This document shows, in pieces, positions 17,952 to 59,716 of a stretch of 64,000 nucleotides of DNA. The position numbers and the translations under genes were made by a program. Source of the DNA: an uncultured Clostridia bacterium (lineage in GTDB: Bacteria > Bacillota > Clostridia > TANB77 > CAG-508); the NCBI GenBank assembly GCA_948777935.1, contig CAQDYY010000001.1, positions 404,930 through 468,929 of the forward strand. The letters are read 5' to 3'. How positions within the stretch are numbered: the stretch's first letter is position 1; every line of letters starts with the position of its first letter. Under the pieces are notes generated by a model. The model worked only from the letters and a program-made list of their open reading frames with translations. It searched no databases and was not told where the DNA came from.

Positions 17952-18833
17952 CTATATCTCTTGCGTATTTTCTATCTTTTCTATTTGTTTAATTTCTGCT
18001 TTTGTAATTTTGCATATCGTTTCTTTATCAATTCCTAGCACTAGCATTTTTTTTATAACTTCTATTTGCTTTCTTTGTATTCCCTGCTCTATTCCCTGCT
18101 CTATTCCTTGTTTTATTCCTTTCTGTATTCCTATCATTTCTGCACCTTCCATTCCGTTCTTATAGTCTCTTATCCATTTATCTCTTAGTTCGGCTTTTCT
18201 TTTTATTGCTTCATCTCCTGTTAAATATTCTAATTCTTCATTTGCTTTTTCTATTACTTTGTTTTTCTTTTTTACCATTTCTACCATTCCTCCTTTACTA
18301 TAATCTAAAAAATATAACCATTCTTCTTTTTTATTTTCTGGCTGTTTCTCTGCTTTTATGAATTTTTTTAACTCTATAAAGTGTATTTCTAGTACATCTG
18401 TTAATACTTTGTCTTTTTCTGTATCTTCTACTATATGCCATTTCGTATGATATTCTTTTGTATCAAAATAATTAAAGTCTAATAAATTTATTGTTATTGT
18501 TTTCTTTAACCCATAAAAGGGCTCTCCTTCATGTATACTTCCTGTGTATAGCTTTCCCCAATAGAATAGTGTCCTTTTTTCCATGTTTTGTTGGTTTACT
18601 ACTTGCATCTCTACGTTTATTTGTGTTTCATTATCTAGTTTTGCTTTTATATCTAGTATCCCTACTTTATCGTTTAGATCTTCCTTTTCTAACTTTGTAT
18701 CTTTTTCTACTTCAATTTCTTTTATTGGTTCCTCTATTATTGAAGATAAAAAGTCTTTTAAAATTGCTTCGTTTCCTTTACTTCCAAATATTCTTTTAAA
18801 TATAATATCATTTTTTGGTGTTAGTTGTACCAT
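17952..18833 (-). CDS. Rpn/YhgA-like PD-(D/E)XK nuclease family protein (transposase_31 family) with C-terminal QGIEQGI repeats
   Basis: 293 aa; DIKAKLDNETQINVEMQV nuclease core; repeated GIKQGIEQGIEQGIQ near C-terminus. Confidence 0.7.
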   Translation of the reverse strand: MVQLTPKNDIIFKRIFGSKGNEAILKDFLSSIIEEPIKEIEVEKDTKLEKEDLNDKVGILDIKAKLDNETQINVEMQVVNQQNMEKRTLFYWGKLYTGSIHEGEPFYGLKKTITINLLDFNYFDTKEYHTKWHIVEDTEKDKVLTDVLEIHFIELKKFIKAEKQPENKKEEWLYFLDYSKGGMVEMVKKKNKVIEKANEELEYLTGDEAIKRKAELRDKWIRDYKNGMEGAEMIGIQKGIKQGIEQGIEQGIQRKQIEVIKKMLVLGIDKETICKITKAEIKQIEKIENTQEI

Positions 18834-19169
18834 CTTTTTCCTCCTTATTATAACATTTTATTTTTTATTATGCAATACAAAATGACAATTTGTTTTAAGT
18901 TTTTTTACCACCTTCTTTACTTCATTTTTGTTTTTGGATTTTTGTTCTAGAATTTTTAGAACTTTCTTTTTGCTCTTACACTGATGTTTTTGAATTTTAA
19001 ATTTTTAGATTTAATTCTTTTTTATTATACATCTTTTTTGTTATTTTGCAAGAAAAACTTTTCGACATTTTTAGACAGTATTTTTATATATTCTATTAAT
19101 CATAATTTTTCATAATGTAACTTAAAATAGCATGTTCTGTTATAAAAAAGCAAAAGCAAAATATATGGA

Positions 19170-19335
19170 ATTTGAAAAGAAGCGTCTTGAAAGTAAATTT
19201 TGTATACGTATGTTTTAAAAATTTGTGGGAGAATCTCACACACTTGTGAGAGGGGCCTACAAATTTTTATTACATACTGTGCAAAATTTATCTTGAACGA
19301 GCGGTTTTGAAAATTCCATATATTTTACTTTTGCT
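19170..19335 (+). repeat. Family-5 ~165-bp repeat, copy 1 (second copy 37334-37498, ~97% identical)
   Basis: Near-identical sequence aatttgaaaagaagcgtcttgaaagtaaattttgtatacg...gtgggagaatctcacac..gtgagaggggcc...; imperfect terminal inverted repeat GGAATTTGAAAA / TTTTGAAAATTCC. Confidence 0.7.
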
Positions 19336-19357
19336 TTTATGCTACTATTATTAATCT

Positions 19358-24148: not shown

Positions 24149-24445
24149 TTAATATAAATGATTATACTGTTTTGATTTTACCCAAATGATGTTAACAAAA
24201 TGAATATTGTTATCTTCTATACGATAGATAATAACATATTTTAGAATTGGAATTTTTCTGTGCTCTTGTTTTTTATCAAATATAGGATACATTTTAGGAA
24301 AAGTTTTTAAAAGTTTGATTTTTTGAACTAGTAATTTTTGAAATTCATCACTTGAATAGATATAGTTACTTGAATAATAATAAGTATAGATCTTTCTTAA
24401 TGCCATTTTAAATTCGTCTGTTGAGGTAAAATAATAATCATTCAT
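24149..24445 (-). CDS. type II TA toxin, RelE/ParE family (pair 1)
   Basis: 98 aa; FPKMYP...YVIIYRIEDNNIHFVNII matches ParE/RelE C-terminal pattern; overlaps upstream antitoxin by 8 nt. Confidence 0.6.
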   Translation of the reverse strand: MNDYYFTSTDEFKMALRKIYTYYYSSNYIYSSDEFQKLLVQKIKLLKTFPKMYPIFDKKQEHRKIPILKYVIIYRIEDNNIHFVNIIWVKSKQYNHLY

Positions 24446-24647
24446 AATGCTTCAACCCGAATTCTTTTTCCATTTCTCTTAATACTTTATCAAGTGGTTC
24501 TATTCTTCCTGCTTTAATATCTTCTTCTCCTCTTCTTATTGCTTCTTTTACATATTCGTTGTATTCTCGGTCTTGTCTTGCTTTTTCTTGTAGATATTCT
24601 TTTAGATTAAATATCTTCTTTAGTTTTAGTTCTTTTACATTTATCAT
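24438..24647 (-). CDS. type II TA antitoxin (small DNA-binding, ParD/RHH-like) pair 1
   Basis: 69 aa from MINVKELKLKK; track N-extension lies over predicted promoter TTGCAT-17-TAAATT. Confidence 0.55.
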   Translation of the reverse strand: MINVKELKLKKIFNLKEYLQEKARQDREYNEYVKEAIRRGEEDIKAGRIEPLDKVLREMEKEFGLKHYE

Positions 24648-24766
24648 GTTTTTACATCCTTTCCTAATATAATTTACCACACAAGAACATATTATGCAAT
24701 ACTTTTTTGGCAATGTTTTAATATTTAGTTGTTACTTTTATTTTGGATTTGGTTTAGATTTATGTA

Positions 24767-25042
24767 TTAATAAAATAGACTTTTATAATTTGATTTTATT
24801 GGAAATATATCATAGATATTAATTAAATCGTCTTTAACTATATATAGAATAATATAATTCTTAACCCAGAACTTTCGATATTTTGTATTTTCAAATACTG
24901 GATACATTTTAGGAAATATTCTAATGTTTTCTATTTTTAATAAGATTATTTTATACATATCTTCAGAAAATTGTTCTGTATTTTGTAATAATGATGCTAC
25001 ATTGTATGTAAATTTATCAGAGAAATGAACATTCTTAATCAT
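24767..25042 (-). CDS. type II TA toxin, RelE/ParE family (pair 2, diverged paralogue)
   Basis: 91 aa; FPKMYPVF...YIILYIVKDDLINIYDI; same architecture as pair 1. Confidence 0.55.
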   Translation of the reverse strand: MIKNVHFSDKFTYNVASLLQNTEQFSEDMYKIILLKIENIRIFPKMYPVFENTKYRKFWVKNYIILYIVKDDLINIYDIFPIKSNYKSLFY

Positions 25043-25244
25043 AGTGCTTCATCCCCAGTTCTTCTTCCATGTATTTTTTGAATTCTTCTAATGTACAATA
25101 TCTTCCTGCTACAAAGTCTTCTTCTGCTTCTTTAAGTCCTTTTTCTATATATTGTCTGTATTCTCGGTCTTGTCTTGCTTTTTCTTGTAGATATTCTTTT
25201 AGATTAAATATCTTCTTTAGTTTTAGTTCTTTTACATTTATCAT
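25035..25244 (-). CDS. type II TA antitoxin pair 2
   Basis: N-terminal 30 aa identical to antitoxin 1, C-terminal toxin-binding half diverged. Confidence 0.55.
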   Translation of the reverse strand: MINVKELKLKKIFNLKEYLQEKARQDREYRQYIEKGLKEAEEDFVAGRYCTLEEFKKYMEEELGMKHYD

Positions 25245-25315
25245 GTTTTCACATCCTTTCCTATTATAATTTACCACACAAGAACATATTATGCAATACT
25301 TTTTTGGCAAAATTT

Positions 25316-25375
25316 AAAAAGTAGCTTCACCATAGGGACGAGCAATGCTCTCCCCTATAGCTTTAACATGAAGCA
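25316..25375 (+). repeat. Family-3 structured element, copy 2
   Basis: See copy 1 at 8626-8685. Confidence 0.5.
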
Positions 25376-34577: not shown

Positions 34578-34725
34578 CATAGGTAATAATTATATAAATA
34601 ACTACGAAGAATCTCGGAGCCATAAGTGGGGACCAATAGAAACCGTCAAAATGTGTTTACACATTTTGTACAGTTCCACCCAGGAATGGCGACGGTTCGT
34701 AGGTATTTATATATTATTACCTATG
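34578..34725 (+). repeat. Family-4 structured element with long flanking inverted repeats, copy 1 (between gerA-A and gerA-B genes)
   Basis: Core ACGAAGAATCTCGGAGCCATAAGTGGGGACCAATAGAAACCGTC[hairpin]...GGAATGGCGACGGTTCGT; second copy 52531-52675; stems show compensatory changes. Confidence 0.6.
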
Positions 34726-37333: not shown

Positions 37334-37498
37334 ATTAAAATTTGAAAAGAAGCGTCTTGAAAGTAAATTTTGTATACGTATGTTTTAAAAATTTGTGGGA
37401 GAATCTCACACCCCTGTGAGAGGGGCCTACAAATTTTTATTACATACTGTGCAAAATTTATCTTGAACGAGCGGATTTGAAAATTTTATATATTTTAG
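37334..37498 (+). repeat. Family-5 ~165-bp repeat, copy 2
   Basis: See copy 1 at 19170-19335; 4-5 mismatches. Confidence 0.7.
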
Positions 37499-38411: not shown

Positions 38412-38467
38412 AAGAAGGGCACAGTGGTGTCATGTCTTTTGGGTATTCCCACAAACGATGCCCCTAC
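38412..38467 (-). repeat. Family-1 element copy B (between nrnA and truB)
   Basis: GTAGGGGCATCGTTTGTGGGAATACCCAAAAGACATGACACCACTGTGCCCTTC on minus strand. Confidence 0.6.
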
Positions 38468-38470
38468 AAT

Positions 38471-43981: not shown

Positions 43982-45067
43982 TTACTCTTCTTTTTCCTCT
44001 TGCATACTTGCAAGAGCCTCTCTAAATTGTGATTCTGATTTTATATCTATCTTCCAATTTGTTAATCTTGCTGCTAACCTAGCATTTTGCCCAGATTTTC
44101 CAATTGCTAATGATAATTGATCATCTGGTACAATTACTTGAGCAAATTTTTCTTCTTCTTTTATATCTACTGCTAATACTTGTGCTGGAAGTAATGCTGC
44201 TGCTATATAAATGCTTGGGTCTTCATTCCATTCTATTACATCAATTTTCTCACCATTTAGTTCATTAATAATATTTTGTATACGTACTCCCTTTTGACCT
44301 ACGCATGAACCTACTGGGTCTATATTAGGGTTTGTTGAATATACTGCTACTTTGCTTCTATAACCTGGATCTCTTGAAACACTTTTTATTTCTATTAATC
44401 CTTCATATATTTCTGGTATTTCAAATTCGAACAACCTTCTAACAAATTCTGGGCAAGCACGTGAAACTATAACTTGAGGATTTCCTTTAAGCCCTTTTAC
44501 TACATCTTGTACATATCCTCTTATTTTATCATTTACACGATATTTCTCTGTTGGTATTTGCTCTTTTGCTGGCATAACTCCTTCTAGTTTTCCAAGATCC
44601 ATAACAACAATGTTTGAATCTGCTTTTTGAATAATTCCAGAAACTATTTCACCTTTTCTTTCGTTAAATTCTGTATATACAATATCTCTTTGCGCTTCTC
44701 TTAGTTTTTGAATAATAACTTGTTTTGCTGTTTGTGCTGCAATTCTACCAAAATCTTTTGGCACCATTTCTATATCTACAGTATCTCCAATTTCTAGTTT
44801 TTTGCTTATTTTCTTTGCATTTTCAAGGTTTATTTGTAGTTTATCATCTTCTGCTATTTCTACTACTTCTTTTATTGCATATAAATGTGCTTCACCTGTT
44901 TCTTTATCCATAACAACTTTTACGTTTTCTGCTGAATCAAAGTTTCTTTTATATGCTGTTAATAATGCTTGCTCAATCGCTTCAATTAAGTACGCTTTTT
45001 TAATTCCTTTCTCTGTTTCAAGTTCTTCTAGTGCTAATATTAGTTCTTTGTTATCAATTGCTTTCAT
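43982..45067 (-). CDS. nusA: transcription termination/antitermination factor NusA
   Basis: 361 aa; S1 and KH domains (GxxG motifs), operon position. Confidence 0.9.
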   Translation of the reverse strand: MKAIDNKELILALEELETEKGIKKAYLIEAIEQALLTAYKRNFDSAENVKVVMDKETGEAHLYAIKEVVEIAEDDKLQINLENAKKISKKLEIGDTVDIEMVPKDFGRIAAQTAKQVIIQKLREAQRDIVYTEFNERKGEIVSGIIQKADSNIVVMDLGKLEGVMPAKEQIPTEKYRVNDKIRGYVQDVVKGLKGNPQVIVSRACPEFVRRLFEFEIPEIYEGLIEIKSVSRDPGYRSKVAVYSTNPNIDPVGSCVGQKGVRIQNIINELNGEKIDVIEWNEDPSIYIAAALLPAQVLAVDIKEEEKFAQVIVPDDQLSLAIGKSGQNARLAARLTNWKIDIKSESQFREALASMQEEKEE

Positions 45068-45109
45068 TTTCCTTTTTCCTCCCTTTATATTTATTTGTAA
45101 TTGTATTTT

Positions 45110-45166
45110 AAGAACCCCCAGTCAGCTTCGCTGACAGCCCCCTTAGGTAAAGGGGCCTTTACTCTA
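45110..45166 (+). repeat. Family-2 GC-rich hairpin element (AACCCCCAGTCAGCTTCGCTGACAGCCCCCTTAGGTAAAGGGGCC..), copy a
   Basis: Copies: 58899-58955(+), 49719-49773(-); variant form 49786-49897(+), 58990-59048(-); first hairpin stem differs between copies but stays paired. Confidence 0.65.
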
Positions 45167-45179
45167 CTATTTTTAAATA

Positions 45180-45638
45180 TCAATCCCAATTATATTTTAG
45201 TTTCATTAATGATATATTTTTTCTTTCTATTGTAATTTCATCATTTTCATACATCATTGTAATAGAAGATTCATCATATCCTGTTAATATGCCATCTAAA
45301 GTTTTTTTCTTATTTATTGGTTTAAATAAGTTTACTTCTATTTCTTCTCCCAAGCTCAAATCAAAATGCCTATCTTTTTTAAGTATTCTCTCAATTCCTG
45401 GAGATGATACCTCTAAAAAGTATTGTTCTTTAATGTAATCTGCTTCATCTAGTAAATCCATAATGCCATCATTTACTTTTTCACAGTCGTTTAAATCGAT
45501 ACCTTTTTCATTATCAATAAAAATACGTAAAAAATAATTTTTTCCCTCTTTTGCATATTCTACATCATACAGTTCGTAGCCCAATTCTTCAATTCTACCT
45601 TTCAAAAGAGTTTCCACTTTTTCTTCAATACTTGCCAA
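45180..45638 (-). CDS. rimP: ribosome maturation factor RimP
   Basis: 152 aa; RimP/YlxS family, first gene of nusA-infB operon; AAGGAGG RBS. Confidence 0.85.
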   Translation of the reverse strand: MASIEEKVETLLKGRIEELGYELYDVEYAKEGKNYFLRIFIDNEKGIDLNDCEKVNDGIMDLLDEADYIKEQYFLEVSSPGIERILKKDRHFDLSLGEEIEVNLFKPINKKKTLDGILTGYDESSITMMYENDEITIERKNISLMKLKYNWD

Positions 45639-47940: not shown

Positions 47941-49347
47941 CTATGCTTTTACTTCTTCTTTTTTTGTTTCTTTTTCTTCTTTTGGCATATTGTTATTTTC
48001 ATCTTTTTCATCTGGTATGATAAAGTTTAATATAATTCCTGCTATAGCTGCAAGACTCATTCCAGAAATTGATACAGCTATTCCATTTCCTGTAGAAATT
48101 GAGAATGCAGCTCCGCCAAGTCCAAGAACTAACATTGCAGAAGCAACTATTATGTTTTTATTTTTGCTAAAGTCTACTTTATTTTGAATTAGAACTTTTA
48201 ATCCATTAACTGCAATAAATCCATATAATAGAAGTGAAACTCCTCCAAGTACTGGGTTTGGTATTGTTTGAACAAGTGCTGTGAATTTTCCAAAAAAGCC
48301 TAAACATATAGCTATAATTGCTGCTAACCCTATTACCCAAACTGAAGCTATTTTTGTCATTCCAACTACTGAAGTGTTTTCTCCATAAGTTGTGTTTGAA
48401 GGTCCTCCTAAAAAACCTGCGACAAATGTTGCTATTCCATCTCCCATAAGTGTATTTTCAAGCCCTGGATCTTTTAATAAGTCTTTTCCTATAATTGTTG
48501 AAAGTGCTTTGTGATCTCCTATATGTTCAGCCATTGTAACTAACGCAATTGGTGCCATTGTTAAAGCAATTCCTAAATTTGGTGTATAATTTACAAATGG
48601 AACATAGAAATTTGGAAGTTGAACCCAAGCTGCATCAGCTATTACTGTGAAATCTACTAGTCCTAAAACACAAGCTGAAATATATCCTGCAATAATTCCA
48701 ACTAAAAATGGAATTATTTTTATAAATCCTTTTGCCCTTGTCATAATTAGTGATGTAACTAAAAATGTAATAAGTGCAACAACTGGTCCTTTCCATTCTA
48801 TACCAGATACTATTTCTCCTCCTACTGAAACAGTAGTATCAAAAATATTTCCAACTGCAGATGTTGCAAGTCCTAAACCTATTATCATAATCATTGGTCC
48901 TATTACTATTGGTGGTAATAGTTTATCTATCCATTTTTTACCAACAAATCTTACTATAAGTGAAACTATGAAATATACTATACCTACTACCATTACCCCT
49001 GTCATAGCTCCAGCAATTCCGTTACTAACTCCTCCACCATTACTAGCTCCAGCAATATATGCTGCTATAATTGGTGAAATAAATGCAAATGAGCTTCCTA
49101 AGAAAACTGGTGATTTTGCTTTTGTACAAGCTATGTAAATAAGTGTTCCTATACCAGCTGTTACAAGAGCTACTGCAATTGAAAGTGCTTGTCCTTCCAC
49201 ACCAGCTGCAGCAATTCCACTATTTACTAAAATTGGTACTAAGATTGTTGCACCAAACATTGCAAATACATGTTGAAATGCAAGTATTATCCATTTTAGT
49301 ATACTTGGCTTTTCATTTACGTCTAAAACTAATTTTGTTTCATTCAT
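47941..49347 (-). CDS. pyrP: uracil/xanthine permease (NCS2 family)
   Basis: ~468 aa from MNETKLVLD with AGGAGG RBS; 12-14 TM, NCS2 signature; upstream of upp. Confidence 0.8.
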
Positions 49348-49388: not shown

Positions 49389-49443
49389 AAAAGGGCACAG
49401 TGGTGTCATGTCTAACTGGTATTCCCACAAACGATGCCCCTAC
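49389..49443 (-). repeat. Family-1 element copy C (5' UTR region of uracil permease)
   Basis: GTAGGGGCATCGTTTGTGGGAATACCAGTTAGACATGACACCACTGTGCCCTTTT on minus strand. Confidence 0.6.
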
Positions 49444-49718
49444 ATATAATCTTTCTACACCATAAAAAATCACTAAAACCATATGTTTTAGTGATTAATT
49501 TATATATTGTAAAAGAATTGTAGCAAATGCAAAAACTAGCAAAGTAACTTTGCTTATTACTGTTTTAGTAGAGTTTACATTTTCTACAAAATTTCTCATT
49601 TTTTACACCCTAAAAGATAGTACTACAATTTCCATAAAAGTTCAAGTACTTTTTTGTAATTTTTTAAGATTTTTATAATACTATTCATACTTCTTTTATA
49701 AGAACTTACGAAGCTTTG

Positions 49719-49897
49719 CAAGAGAGCCCCTTTAATAAGGGGGCTGGCGCCGATAGGCGACTGGGGGTTCTTAAAAAACATTTAGAAGAACCCTCCGTCA
49801 GTGCTTCGCACTGCCAGCCACTGCATAAGATATCTGTAATGCTCACTAGCGTTCGCTAACAGCTATCTTAACCTCCCTTGTTAAAGGAGGTTTCTTG
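49719..49897 (+). repeat. ~180-bp imperfect palindrome formed by two Family-2 units head-to-head (MITE-like, ~26-bp terminal inverted repeats CAAGARASCYCCTTTAAYAAGGGRG)
   Basis: Unit 49719-49773 (minus orientation) and unit 49786-49897 (plus orientation, with ~50-bp insert); outer ends are reverse complements of each other. Confidence 0.6.
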
Positions 49898-49947
49898 TAT
49901 GCCTTCGCAGATATTCTTATTTGCTATAGTCTGAACAGTAACATATT

Positions 49948-50847
49948 TTATATCCCTCTAAAATCAAACTCTGGCACATACTCTTCTTCATGTTCTCCTA
50001 ATTCTTGTATATACCCATTTTTTAGGTTTAAAGAATATAAATATTGTTCTATTTGTTTATATTCTTTTTTATTTAGTTTCCTATTTATCAGCTCATCTTC
50101 TTTTGCTTTATATGTAGGAAAATATTGTGCCATAACACTTACATATATATCCTCAGGCATATTTTCTTTTATCCATTTTAAAATATGTTTTGTATTTAAT
50201 ATATGATTTGGCAATACTAAATGACGTATAATAACTCCTTTTTGAATAATCCCATCTTTATTAAAAACAGCTCCTCCTACTTGTTTATACATCTCCTTTA
50301 TAGCACTTGTTGCAATTTCAAAATAGTTATCTATTCCAGAATATTTTTTTGCAGTGTAATTACTATAATACTTTAAATCCGGTAAATATATATCTATATA
50401 TCCATTTAAGAGCTCAATAGTTTCTTTCTTTTCATATCCATTTGTATTATATACAATTGGAATATTTAATCCATTTTTCTTTGCAATATCAAGCGCTTCT
50501 ATAATTTGATATACATATGAAGTAGGTGTAACAAGATTAATGTTATTAGCACCTCTTTGTTGCTGTTTTAAAAATATTTCTGCTAAATGCTCTACTGTAA
50601 TCTCTTTTCCTTTTTGATATTGGCTTATTTCGTAGTTTTGGCAATACTTACATTCTAAATTGCAATTTGTAAAAAATACAGTACCAGAGCCATTTTTTCC
50701 ACTAATACATGGCTCTTCAAAATAATGTAAAGATGCTAATGCAATTAATAGCCTATTCTCTGAATTACATCTTCCCTTGTTTCCTTTTAATCTATTTACT
50801 CCACAATTATGTGGGCATAATGTACATTTACTTAAATTTTCTACCAT
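49948..50847 (-). CDS. radical SAM protein (glycyl-radical-enzyme activase-like)
   Basis: 299 aa; CNLECKYC (Cx3Cx2C) cluster plus N-terminal CTLCPHNCG cysteine motif. Confidence 0.65.
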   Translation of the reverse strand: MVENLSKCTLCPHNCGVNRLKGNKGRCNSENRLLIALASLHYFEEPCISGKNGSGTVFFTNCNLECKYCQNYEISQYQKGKEITVEHLAEIFLKQQQRGANNINLVTPTSYVYQIIEALDIAKKNGLNIPIVYNTNGYEKKETIELLNGYIDIYLPDLKYYSNYTAKKYSGIDNYFEIATSAIKEMYKQVGGAVFNKDGIIQKGVIIRHLVLPNHILNTKHILKWIKENMPEDIYVSVMAQYFPTYKAKEDELINRKLNKKEYKQIEQYLYSLNLKNGYIQELGEHEEEYVPEFDFRGI

Positions 50848-52448: not shown

Positions 52449-52530
52449 TTTATATCCTCCAATCAATCATTACAAATTATACCAAAATTTGTAAATTAAA
52501 ACAATAATTTTACATAATTTTGTATTTTCA

Positions 52531-52675
52531 TCTATAATAGTATATAAATCTCCACGAAGAATCTTGGAGCCATAAGTGGGGACCAATAGAAACCGTCAAA
52601 ATGCGCAAGCATTTTGTACAGTTTCATTGGGGAATGGCGACGGTTCGTGGGGATTTATATACTATTATAGATGTG
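52531..52675 (+). repeat. Family-4 structured element, copy 2, with perfect 20-bp flanking inverted repeat TCTATAATAGTATATAAATC
   Basis: See 34578-34725; P1 stem CCACGAA/TTCGTGG vs CTACGAA/TTCGTAG in copy 1 (compensatory). Confidence 0.6.
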
Positions 52676-58264: not shown

Positions 58265-58876
58265 CTATTTTGCTAACTCCACAATAGAATTCATTATAAG
58301 TTCGCTTGCTTCTTCTAATGCTTGTTTTTCAGTTTCTTTATTTTTGTACATTTCATTATATTTTGATAAATCTATTGGTTTTCCATATACAATTTTTACC
58401 TTTTGAAATGCTTTTAAGCCACCCGATATACCAACTGGTATTACTCTTGTACCAGTTCTTAATGCAAAAAATGCTGCTCCATCTTTTACTTTTTCATTTT
58501 TTTCTAATCCATTTCTTGTTCCTTCTGGAAATAATGCAATACTTTCTCCATCTTTTAATGCTTTTAATGTAGTTTTTAGTGCTGTTACATCTTTAGAATC
58601 TCTTTTTACATATATTCCATCAAATATTACCCCTAAAAAAGCAAAAAATGGATTTTTTCTTAAGTCTTCTTTTGCCATAAAACGTACATGTCTTCCCACT
58701 GTACATACAATTAATGGTGGGTCTAAATAGTTTCTATGGTTTCCACAAAAAATAAACTTTTCATCTTTTATGATATTTTCTTTTCCTATAACTTCTGCTC
58801 TATGTACTACTTTGCAGTAAATATAAATTGCACCTTTTACAATTCCTCTTCCTATCTTTTTAAAAAACAATTTCAT
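58265..58876 (-). CDS. plsC: 1-acyl-sn-glycerol-3-phosphate acyltransferase
   Basis: 203 aa; acyltransferase motifs NHRNYLD and FPEGTR. Confidence 0.85.
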   Translation of the reverse strand: MKLFFKKIGRGIVKGAIYIYCKVVHRAEVIGKENIIKDEKFIFCGNHRNYLDPPLIVCTVGRHVRFMAKEDLRKNPFFAFLGVIFDGIYVKRDSKDVTALKTTLKALKDGESIALFPEGTRNGLEKNEKVKDGAAFFALRTGTRVIPVGISGGLKAFQKVKIVYGKPIDLSKYNEMYKNKETEKQALEEASELIMNSIVELAK

Positions 58877-58898
58877 GTTAATATTCTCCTTATTTTCT

Positions 58899-59048
58899 AA
58901 AACCCCCAGTCACCTTCGGTGACAGCCCCCTTAGGTAAAGGGGCCTTTACTCTATAATTTTTAGACTAGCACAGTAATTTTGAAATGTAGAGAAAAGCCT
59001 CCTTTATTTAAGGGAGGTGGCTCGCGTAGCGAGACGGAGGGTTCTACT
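58899..59048 (+). repeat. tail-to-tail pair of Family-2 units between cmk and plsC
   Basis: 58899-58955 (plus form) and 58990-59048 (variant form on minus), separated by CTCTATAA...TAGAG spacer. Confidence 0.6.
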
Positions 59049-59050
59049 CC

Positions 59051-59716
59051 TTACATCTTTTCTTCTATAATTTTATATACAACATCTGCACATTCATCTA
59101 TACTCATATTAGTTCCATCTACTAATATTGCATCATCTGCTTTTCTTAATGGTGCAATTTCACGTTCAGAATCAATTTTGTCTCTTTTTATTACGCTTTC
59201 TAATACTTCTTCATAAGACATTTTAATTCCCTTTTCTTCATTTTGTCTTATTCTTCTTCTTGTTCTTTCTTCTGCTGATGCATCTAAATAAATTTTTACA
59301 TCTGCATTTGGAAATACTACAGTTCCTATGTCTCTTCCTTCCATTACAATACTTTGTCCTTTTGCTAAATCGCGTTGTAACTCAAGTAGTCTCCCACGAA
59401 CTTGTGGTATTTTAGATACTTCTGAAATGATATCTGTTATTTGTTTTGTACGTATCTCGGTTGAAACATCCTCTCCATTTAAGAATACACGTTGACCATT
59501 ACTTTCTTCTTTAAAGCTAATTTCTATTTTGTTTAATAATTCTTCTATTTTTTCTATTTCGTGTAACTCTATTTTCCTTCTTATTATTTCTAGTGTTACA
59601 CACCTAAACATAGCTCCTGTATCTACATTTAAAAATCCAAATTTTTTAGATACAAGACTTGCAATAGTTCCTTTTCCAGTTCCTGCTGGTCCATCAATAG
59701 CAACAATAAATGACAT
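59051..59716 (-). CDS. cmk: cytidylate kinase
   Basis: 221 aa; P-loop AIDGPAGTGKGT, NMP-binding region. Confidence 0.9.
   Translation of the reverse strand: MSFIVAIDGPAGTGKGTIASLVSKKFGFLNVDTGAMFRCVTLEIIRRKIELHEIEKIEELLNKIEISFKEESNGQRVFLNGEDVSTEIRTKQITDIISEVSKIPQVRGRLLELQRDLAKGQSIVMEGRDIGTVVFPNADVKIYLDASAEERTRRRIRQNEEKGIKMSYEEVLESVIKRDKIDSEREIAPLRKADDAILVDGTNMSIDECADVVYKIIEEKM

Follow-up and report, generated by a model that had tools for sequence, protein, structure and literature searches.

The locus and its repeated units

The window analyzed here, a stretch of 64 kb from contig CAQDYY010000001.1 of an uncultured Clostridia bacterium, carries an inverted repeat at 49719-49897, between a xanthine/uracil permease gene (47941-49347) and a radical-SAM gene (49948-50847), that consists of two related units of about 55 nt facing each other head to head (HH). 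Further units of the same kind lie between rimP (45180-45638) and nusA (43982-45067) and between an acyltransferase gene (58265-58876, minus strand) and cmk (59051-59716, minus strand). The genes around the units are nearly all on the minus strand, in the order infB, an L7Ae-like gene, ylxR, nusA, rimP, an AAA_14 gene, and upp, with the permease and radical-SAM genes further on and the acyltransferase gene and cmk beyond them. Judging by its GerA-family genes, the host probably forms spores.

The five GC-rich modules that the initial annotation had placed at these three intergenic sites were all recovered: A1 between rimP and nusA, A2 and B1 in the facing pair, and A3 and B2 between the acyltransferase gene and cmk. 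The signature GAACCCYCNGTC, with at most one mismatch, has seven matches in the window, five of them within the modules, against 0.22 expected, and an nhmmer search of the window with the family profile returned exactly five units; elsewhere, several matches per metagenome-assembled genome (MAG) were found. The GC content of the units (52-58%) stands out sharply from the 29% of the whole window, as had been described, but the pair at 49719-49897 has 48.6% rather than the estimated 60%.

Read in the forward sense, each unit begins with AACCCYC-N-GTC, continues with a first hairpin (P1) whose stem is closed over a TTC or TAC loop, and ends with G(A/C)C-A-CCYCCCTT, a loop, and AAGGGRGG, the last two blocks forming the arms of a second hairpin (P2). 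The P1 loop had been likened to UUCG, whereas it is a 3-nt loop closed by C-G (GC-TTC-GC) and contains no c(UUCG)g tetraloop. The window contains two types of unit, type A with CCCCC/GGGGG blocks and the tag AGTC, and type B with CCTCC/GGAGG blocks and the tag CGTC. Type B units read CGTC-stem-G-CCA and type A units AGTC-stem-GACA, with the GTC able to pair with G(A/C)C. Each pair in the window is made of one A and one B unit.

The HH heterodimer has a conserved span of about 49705-49911, with CTTACGAAG at the left edge and CCTTCGCAG at the right edge, and is composed of A2 in reverse orientation, a spacer of 13-16 nt, and B1 in forward orientation. Its outer inverted repeat (CTTACGAAG..CAAGAGAGCCCC against GGAGGTTTCTTG..CCTTCGCAG) is imperfect: the outer arms of the facing units are complementary at 21 of 27 positions, and the repeat reaches 49709-49741 and 49875-49907, where the 33-nt arms are 76% complementary. 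Unit A2 (49719-49773, minus strand), read on the plus strand, comprises the P2 hairpin at 49726-49744 (GCCCC..GGGGGC), the P1 hairpin at 49746-49761 (GGCGCC-GATA-GGCGAC), and a third-strand segment, GGGGGTT, at 49763-49769. Unit B1 (49786-49897, plus strand) comprises the 5' segment AACCCTCC at 49789-49796, P1 at 49797-49815 (GTCAGTGC-TTC-GCACTGCC), and P2 at 49870-49892 (AACCTCCCTT..AAAGGAGGTT). B1 is long because it contains a private insertion of about 54 nt (approximately 49817-49870, plus strand) with its own hairpin (TAAGATATCTGT..ACAGCTATCTTA). In the alignment this insertion is absent from 13 of 13 equivalent HH dimers in other genomes, and no second copy was found in the window or the fetched loci.

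Between cmk and the acyltransferase gene, A3 and B2 form a tail-to-tail (TT) heterodimer at 58894-59050 with a conserved linker (..GTAGAG..) between them. A3 occupies 58894-58963 (plus strand), including part of the linker, and B2 occupies 58988-59047 (minus strand) and reads GAACCCTCCGTC-TCGC-TAC-GCGA-GCCA-CCTCCCTTAAATAAAGGAGG. The single unit A1 (45106-45175, plus strand) likewise includes part of the TT linker. A3 and A1 are 90% identical, and their P1 stems differ by a compensated C-G/G-C swap (GTCAGC..GCTGAC at 45121-45135, GTCACC..GGTGAC at 58909-58923), which could reflect selection or palindrome-templated correction. As single-stranded DNA, both pairs are predicted to fold into long branched hairpins, with energies of -48 kcal/mol (z = -7.2) for the pair at 49719-49897 and -29.6 kcal/mol (z = -4.1) for the pair at 58894-59050.

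Mirror symmetry between the 5' segment and P2

In all unit types, the 5' segment is the reverse, and not the complement, of the P2 pyrimidine arm. An explicit count, made type by type, confirmed this mirror rule for types A, B, C, C', D, E, and B', across 7-8 positions. Type A (5' segment AACCCCC; P2 arms CCCCCTT and AAGGGGG) and type B (5' segment AACCCTCC; P2 arms CCTCCCTT and AAGGGAGG) occur in the window and at many other loci. Type C (5' segment AACTCCCC; P2 arms CCCCTCTT and AAGAGGGG) is present in Flavobacteriaceae in 16 copies, including the long C' form, and type D (5' segment AACCCTC(A); P2 arms (G)CTCCCTT and AAGGGAG(C)) in Clostridia MAGs. Type E (5' segment GACCCCTCC; P2 arms CCTCCCCTC and GAGGGGAGG) was found at one of the fetched loci (L040; such loci are numbered with an L throughout) and type B' (5' segment AACCCACC; P2 arms CCTCCCTTT and AAAGGGAGG) in Saccharibacteria. 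The type of the 5' segment agreed with that of P2 in 123 cases, and the 7 exceptions are mostly artefacts of neighboring units.

Duplication gives direct repeats and inversion gives inverted repeats; neither gives mirror repeats, the hallmark of DNA able to form triplexes. In the strand CCYCCCTT-loop-AAGGGRGG-P1-GGRGGGTT, a pyrimidine block is followed by a purine block that is Watson-Crick complementary to it and by a third block in antiparallel orientation to the purine arm, so that each position would yield a canonical triplet (G·G-C, A·A-T, or T·A-T). Of the two motifs, that of purines on this strand and that of pyrimidines on its complement, type B' (GGTGGGTT) is compatible with the former only. 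In DNA, triplexes of the purine motif assemble at neutral pH in the presence of Mg2+, whereas RNA does not form them (Holder et al. 2015, PMC4666352). The symmetry is thus suggestive of units that may form a purine-motif intrastrand triplex bridged by P1.

Several considerations weigh against the triplex. The fold is read from the symmetry of the sequence alone, and the informative types (B/D, C/C', E, and B') are few, each of them representing one evolutionary lineage. By our estimate, the mirror placement of a single T/A would arise by chance at about 1 in 250, which is not overwhelming, and the triplex of the Escherichia coli TMECO repeats was seen on isolated single strands only, not in vivo (PMC4666352). 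Furthermore, the second connector is not the short loop typical of triplex repeats but a hairpin of 17-25 nt, longer still in C'.

Other readings of these blocks were considered and rejected, namely mimicry of the 16S 3' end (anti-Shine-Dalgarno), as type A units are not Shine-Dalgarno-like; a G-quadruplex, as the runs of type C misfit; and Holliday-junction-like homology, as the arms are mirror images and not identical.

Covariation of P1 and the possibility of an RNA element

The initial annotation had observed that the first hairpin varies in sequence between copies but always pairs, and had attributed this to selection on structure. Across 63 family members, 88.7% of the P1 cells pair compared with 60% in shuffles, and changes on both sides affect 105 cells against 29 expected, a count that none of 500 shuffles reached. 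All four Watson-Crick pair types are represented at each of four positions, while G·U accounts for 3 of about 250 cells of these four variable pairs (~1%). More G·U pairs would be expected of a functional RNA helix. The P1 covariation with almost no G·U therefore argues for a DNA-type fold, or a palindrome constrained on both strands, rather than RNA. The constraint on structure thus stands, and the structure under constraint, with few G·U pairs and a mirror-repeat design, points to DNA rather than RNA.

An RNA element would be read differently: the forward unit would serve as an intrinsic terminator or a 3' stabilizing stem-loop, the dimers would be bidirectional terminators, and the 5' segment and P2 might form a switch. 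Some of our observations weigh in that direction and against a fold that acts purely as DNA. P2 is followed by a T run in several lineages, and T-rich tails occur in many, including the candidate phyla radiation (CPR) and Oscillospiraceae (GGGAGGTTTTTT); units often begin 2-30 nt past a stop codon; one forward unit is met in each direction through a dimer; and the P2 of one subfamily has 32 C·A mismatches, which are U·G on the other strand. In addition, A1 is antisense to the essential rimP-nusA-infB operon, and its P2 and T-rich tail are therefore off the mRNA strand, a placement that would avoid polarity if a forward unit impedes transcription. A side effect at the level of RNA, for instance termination or protection by a 3' hairpin, is accordingly possible. 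However, it is not general, because many subfamilies lack a T run and read GGGAGGCAAG after P2. The terminator scan gave weak matches only, units are found in both orientations relative to co-directional genes, and a terminator role would leave the AACCCYC-GTC block and the mirror rule unexplained. One unit even lies in frame inside a protein-coding gene, ligA, and the analogous PIT/TMECO repeats have no terminator activity (PMC4666352). The units also lack the marks of a structured regulatory RNA, given their mixed orientation, the scarcity of G·U pairs, and the lack of an Rfam match: searches at the gathering threshold over the window and 18 loci, together with E-value searches of two regions, returned tRNAs and noise only. 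On this evidence, we regard an RNA element as an unlikely account of the family. Self-cleaving ribozymes, which were considered separately, were rejected for want of an Rfam match and of conserved catalytic cores.

Distribution of the family

In a scan of species-representative genomes, one per species, the 22-nt-specific pattern AACCCYCNGTC-N8-14-GMCA-N0-2-CCYCCCTT matched at least 105 genomic stretches, with about 12 matches estimated to arise by chance. Nearly all of the listed matches add a complementary P2 arm and a perfectly paired P1, neither of which the pattern demanded. The hosts among the matches listed are MAGs of many low-GC Clostridia from the gut of mouse, human, and ruminants; Oscillospiraceae and other Bacillota MAGs of 60-67% GC; Flavobacteriaceae (Sinomicrobium, Maribacter, Kriegella, Rasiella, and Croceivirga); CPR bacteria (Saccharibacteria, Shapirobacteria, Peribacteria, and Gracilibacteria); and one Marinamargulisbacteria MAG. 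A few matches in high-GC genomes (Deinococcus and Rhodospirillaceae) have no P2 and look like chance. No unit was matched in 2.9 million viral contigs or in plasmids, and the element is therefore not phage- or plasmid-borne. Searches of the literature with the motif strings met unrelated primer sequences only.

The dimers recur as such. The HH architecture was found at 13 other MAG loci and the TT architecture likewise at 13 other loci, which with the window makes 14 of each, all with unrelated flanks; at L077, for example, a TT dimer lies inside the pyr (pyrimidine biosynthesis) operon. An apparent synteny of L077 with rimP-nusA was rejected, as the repeat alone matches. The A+B design of the HH dimer is also present in an Oscillospiraceae MAG of 62-67% GC, and the heterodimer is thus kept in Clostridia from 28% to 65% GC. 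Copies confined to the three sites of the window and conserved in position had been named as the pattern expected of fixed regulatory hairpins; instead, the same dimers occupy non-orthologous loci in many genomes. These data support the pair as a non-coding, repeated inverted-repeat element rather than a regulatory site fixed in place.

With few exceptions, units lie between genes, and in the lineage of the window all copies do. They sit just past stop codons without strand preference: relative to the flanking genes, 31 units are opposite to both and 20 have the same orientation as both, whereas 13 lie between convergent and 6 between divergent genes. The two types of dimer are about equally divided. 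Apart from single units and HH and TT dimers, we found units fused through a shared P2 (L061 and L094), direct tandem arrays (L109 and L133), and half-units. In Flavobacteriaceae, the direct tandem arrays have periods of 50, 135, or 200 nt (L109 2725-4160; L133 approximately 720-2100; L066 7020-7280) and alternate type B units with the longer type C' unit (AAACTCCCCTTTCTTCC...CCCCTCTTT/AAAGAGGGG). In Sinomicrobium sp. N-1-3-6, B and C units are contained in a non-coding repeat of 270-400 bp that is 87-96% identical among at least six copies (L049, L086, L090, L093, L103, and L128).

Two Shapirobacteria carry a unit in frame inside ligA, the gene for NAD-dependent DNA ligase (..KNRPVKGGGPATVGTEGFYSNSRNATSG..), within the adenylation domain and just before the conserved RNA(A/T)xG motif (L045 1438-1481, inside the open reading frame (ORF) 892-2865; L034 7755-7795). 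This is an intragenic insertion like those of the Rickettsia palindromic elements (RPE).

Mobility and the question of a transposase

The segment at 45097-45181, 85 nt that include A1, is polymorphic within the species. It is filled in the window and in L003-L005, whereas L001, L002, and L006-L008 have 7 nt (AGTAAAA) in its place; among contigs encoding identical NusA, the rimP-nusA spacer measures 112 nt with A1 and 34 nt without it. Filled and empty strains are 99.5-99.95% identical over the aligned flanks of about 3-7 kb, and the junction falls within the rimP stop codon (TAG to TGA). As the filled allele occurs in strains that differ by 2 nt over 7 kb and the empty allele in more diverse strains, A1 is a recent gain at the rimP-nusA site in this species. 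The family is thus dispersed and able to move, with at least one new intergenic site reached recently. In addition, short-read contigs end within units at all three sites of the window. Against a simple insertion, the polymorphic site has no target-site duplication and is not a clean insertion, and the replacement of 7 nt by 85 nt could also be explained by recombination or gene conversion; moreover, scans of JGI metagenomes gave no match to empty alleles of either dimer.

The initial annotation had read the facing pair as a miniature inverted-repeat transposable element (MITE), and in its classical form this reading makes the pair a deletion derivative of an insertion sequence (IS), moved through its terminal inverted repeats by the DDE or HUH transposase of that IS. 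The repeated, inverted-repeat, non-coding, and mobile character of the element agrees with it, as do the terminal inverted repeats of about 27-33 nt, the typical size, the dispersal and polymorphism, and ends that often abut TA. The evidence for transposition by a parent IS is another matter. No target-site duplication was found at the 14 HH dimers, the 14 TT dimers, or the polymorphic site, and neither a transposase nor a longer element with the unit ends (AAGAACCCYC or CTTCGAAG) was found in the window, the 105 listed loci, about 1 Mb of related loci, viral contigs, or plasmids. Similarly, no parent IS or transposase was recognized among the window ORFs tested or the ORF clusters from the 105 listed loci, and clustering of the ORFs around these loci revealed no recurrent protein family in Clostridia. 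An approximate IS200 TnpA query sequence gave no match, which is a weak test, and no ORF resembling the Y1-type transposases associated with repetitive extragenic palindromic (REP) sequences (RAYTs) was seen in about 1 Mb of loci, a weak test as well, which covered the fetched loci. The occurrence of half-units and fused units, of tandem arrays, and of a copy in frame with a gene does not fit a classical MITE either; such modularity is characteristic of REPs, bacterial interspersed mosaic elements (BIMEs), RPE, and BoxC repeats instead. Moreover, internal stems that differ fully between copies while the flanking blocks stay fixed are not expected from copying and decay. Lacking a duplication and a parent IS and being built from modular units, the element is not a classical MITE, and we hold such an origin to be quite unlikely. 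One apparent ORF cluster in an Oscillospiraceae MAG proved to be the repeat itself in translation and was discarded.

DUF559 genes beside units

In Flavobacteriaceae, a gene of about 120 aa encoding a DUF559 protein (Vsr-like, PD-(D/E)XK) lies between two units at five loci that were fetched through the unit pattern. A unit lies 18 nt upstream of a DUF559 gene at a Saccharibacteria locus, and in an Oscillospiraceae MAG (L048) a DUF559 gene adjoins an HH dimer. The DUF559 genes beside units are located at L046 2242-2604, L066 7511-7873, L068 3670-4050, L095 4740-5111, L109 3413-3784, L098 1192-1557, and L048 2449-2784, and further ones are present in L129-L134. In the reverse test, five DUF559 homologues were chosen by genus name only (Xanthomarina, Seonamhaeicola, Bizionia, Winogradskyella, and Aureibaculum), and each of the five is flanked on both sides by B or C units at a distance of no more than 300 nt, a count to be weighed against the background density of units in those genomes.

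RAYT genes are flanked by REPs. By analogy, we hypothesize that DUF559 may be the cognate nuclease of the units, and we regard the DUF559 genes found beside units in other phyla as encoding a candidate partner. A wider proposal, in which the units would form a cross-phylum REP-like class (Bacillota, Bacteroidota, and Patescibacteria) with a hairpin-bridged purine-motif triplex as its core and the unit-flanked DUF559 nuclease as its cognate protein, is one that we advance tentatively and think improbable at present. If it were true, DUF559 would be the missing partner of the "transposase-less" CGTC-type REPs, and a mobile or selfish element would be recognized by way of a natural DNA triplex.

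The same loci may also be read as cassettes: a site-specific recombinase or homing nuclease would recognize the units, which would flank small gene cassettes as attC sites do. The Flavobacteriaceae loci, where direct repeats of the unit flank the 120-aa DUF559 gene and arrays have periods of 135-200 nt, are compatible with cassettes, as are the five name-chosen homologues with units on both sides. Yet the genes between units in Clostridia have housekeeping functions (FabZ, an ECF S component, and SAICAR synthase), enclosure is limited to a single gene family, no integrase was seen, and the units lack the core sites of attC (GTTRRRY). This makes a role as cassette or recombination sites very improbable, and integron attC sites themselves were rejected for the lack of core sites.

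Other repeats in the window

Other repeats are also present in the window. A second family, with copies at 34591-34719 and 52529-52673, is about 130-145 bp long, has halves that are 86-94% identical, matches no Rfam family, and has terminal inverted repeats of 30 nt with 97% complementarity (52529-52558 and 52644-52673). A third family (AAGGGCACAGTGGTGTCATGTCT..GGTATTCCCACAAACGATGCCCCTACA) is found at 1494-1532, 38412-38468, and 49389-49444; two copies are 93% identical, one of them inverted, and the permease start is immediately preceded by one copy, at a distance of about 300 nt from the palindrome. Moreover, a palindromic repeat of about 160-190 bp occurs at 19146-19338 and 37339-37497, with 97% identity between the two copies and 94-96% identity to a copy at L077 5311-5485. 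An ORF encoding a PD-(D/E)XK "transposase" (PF12784, Rpn-like; 17952-18833, minus strand) adjoins one copy of this repeat, which is of a different family from the units. Finally, a direct duplication of 218 nt (24504-24721 and 25101-25318), 90% identical and 597 nt apart, spans two small ORFs, at 24149-24445 and 24767-25042.

Discussion

Our analysis favors, at somewhat better than an even chance, the view that the repeat at 49719-49897 is an HH pair of two related units of about 55 nt, A and B, from a dispersed family that resembles REPs and BIMEs, is capable of triplex formation, and has no gene of its own. The inverted A+B dimers, the conserved linkers, and the intergenic placement at gene 3' ends are those of a REP/BIME-like element. 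Each unit would combine a short 5' segment, a P1 hairpin with a freely varying stem, and a P2 hairpin with polypyrimidine and polypurine arms, and a third block would lie along the purine arm of P2 to give a purine-motif intrastrand triplex bridged by P1. Most likely, the element acts as DNA once one strand is exposed during replication, repair, or transcription, at which point the two hairpins and the short triplex could be recognized by an activity supplied in trans, which might mobilize the element, or could promote template switching and recombination. Joining A to B instead of to a second A probably leaves the long palindrome imperfect, and hence tolerable.

In many bacteria, small palindromic repeats fill the space between genes. 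The present family, which is common in uncultured gut Clostridia, breaks assemblies and creates strain-level indels beside essential operons. The recurrence of a BoxC-like design of mirror plus inverted repeat in unrelated phyla, with a different connector, may be taken as an argument that the triplex-capable fold itself is under selection. Current searches for triplexes and REPs would miss the family. The co-location with DUF559 genes offers a concrete partner candidate for a class of repeats thought to lack one. For annotation, terminator, small RNA, or MITE labels are best avoided at unit sites short of experimental data.

Comparison with known systems

Two published systems come closest. 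The first, the BoxC/PIT/TMECO repeats of E. coli (Hoyne, Maher et al. 2000; Holder et al. 2015, PMC4666352), follow the pattern 5'-CCCTCNCCC-N3-6-GGGNGAGGG-N3-GGGNGAGGG. They are always intergenic, without strand bias, type A is always inverted with type B, they lie off mobile elements, have no promoter or terminator activity, and are associated with small indels between strains, and their triplex formed in vitro as single strands (PMC4666352). Like them, the present units place a pyrimidine block, a purine block, and a mirroring second purine block on one strand, and the two share the design of a class II purine motif with a complementary strand of the pyrimidine-motif class. Likewise, both are G/C-rich repeats of about 40-55 nt that are intergenic without strand bias, come in inverted A+B subtypes, are found off transposons, phages, and plasmids, and are linked to small strain indels. 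However, loop 2 is a variable hairpin with a CGTC or AGTC tag in the present family instead of 3 nt, and with this connector of 17-25 nt the family would be missed by the published ITxF search, which allows loops of 1-6 nt. The triplex blocks comprise 7-8 positions here compared with 9 and read CCYCCCTT rather than CCCTCNCCC, and the hosts are Clostridia, Flavobacteriaceae, and CPR bacteria, whereas those of BoxC/TMECO are Proteobacteria and Cyanobacteria. Moreover, the BoxC/TMECO triplex was demonstrated in vitro, while the one proposed here is predicted from sequence.

The second system, the CGTC-tagged REPs, has a stem-loop between the CGTC tag and a CCA tail. These REPs occur mostly as HH heterodimers at gene 3' ends, with occasional in-frame copies in replication and repair genes, and no transposase dedicated to them is known (Di Nocera et al. 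2013, PMC3733652). The B units, which read C-CGTC-stem-G-CCA, may be likened to these short palindromes, and both kinds form HH heterodimers after gene 3' ends between unidirectional or convergent ORFs, have subfamilies with alternative complementary stems, and include in-frame copies in replication or repair genes. On the other hand, the stem is 5-9 bp with a 3-nt loop here, as opposed to 8-9 bp with a 4-5-nt loop and A-T in the first two pairs, and the tag has its GTC paired with G(A/C)C. A second hairpin and a mirror-repeat block, both absent from the REP description, are also present in each unit, TT dimers are common, and Firmicutes and CPR bacteria are not among the reported REP hosts.

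With bacterial MITEs such as Correia/NEMIS, RUP, and ERIC, the dimers share a non-coding length of 100-200 bp, terminal inverted repeats, intergenic placement, long hairpins, and presence or absence among strains; they differ in having no target-site duplication, no related IS, modular single units, and a core conserved across phyla. The ligA copies in the two Shapirobacteria resemble RPE in being a palindromic repeat in frame within a gene, but only this one intragenic case was seen, in contrast to the exclusively intergenic copies of the window lineage. By these comparisons, the family would best be filed as a variant of the BoxC/REP kind that is a member of neither published family.

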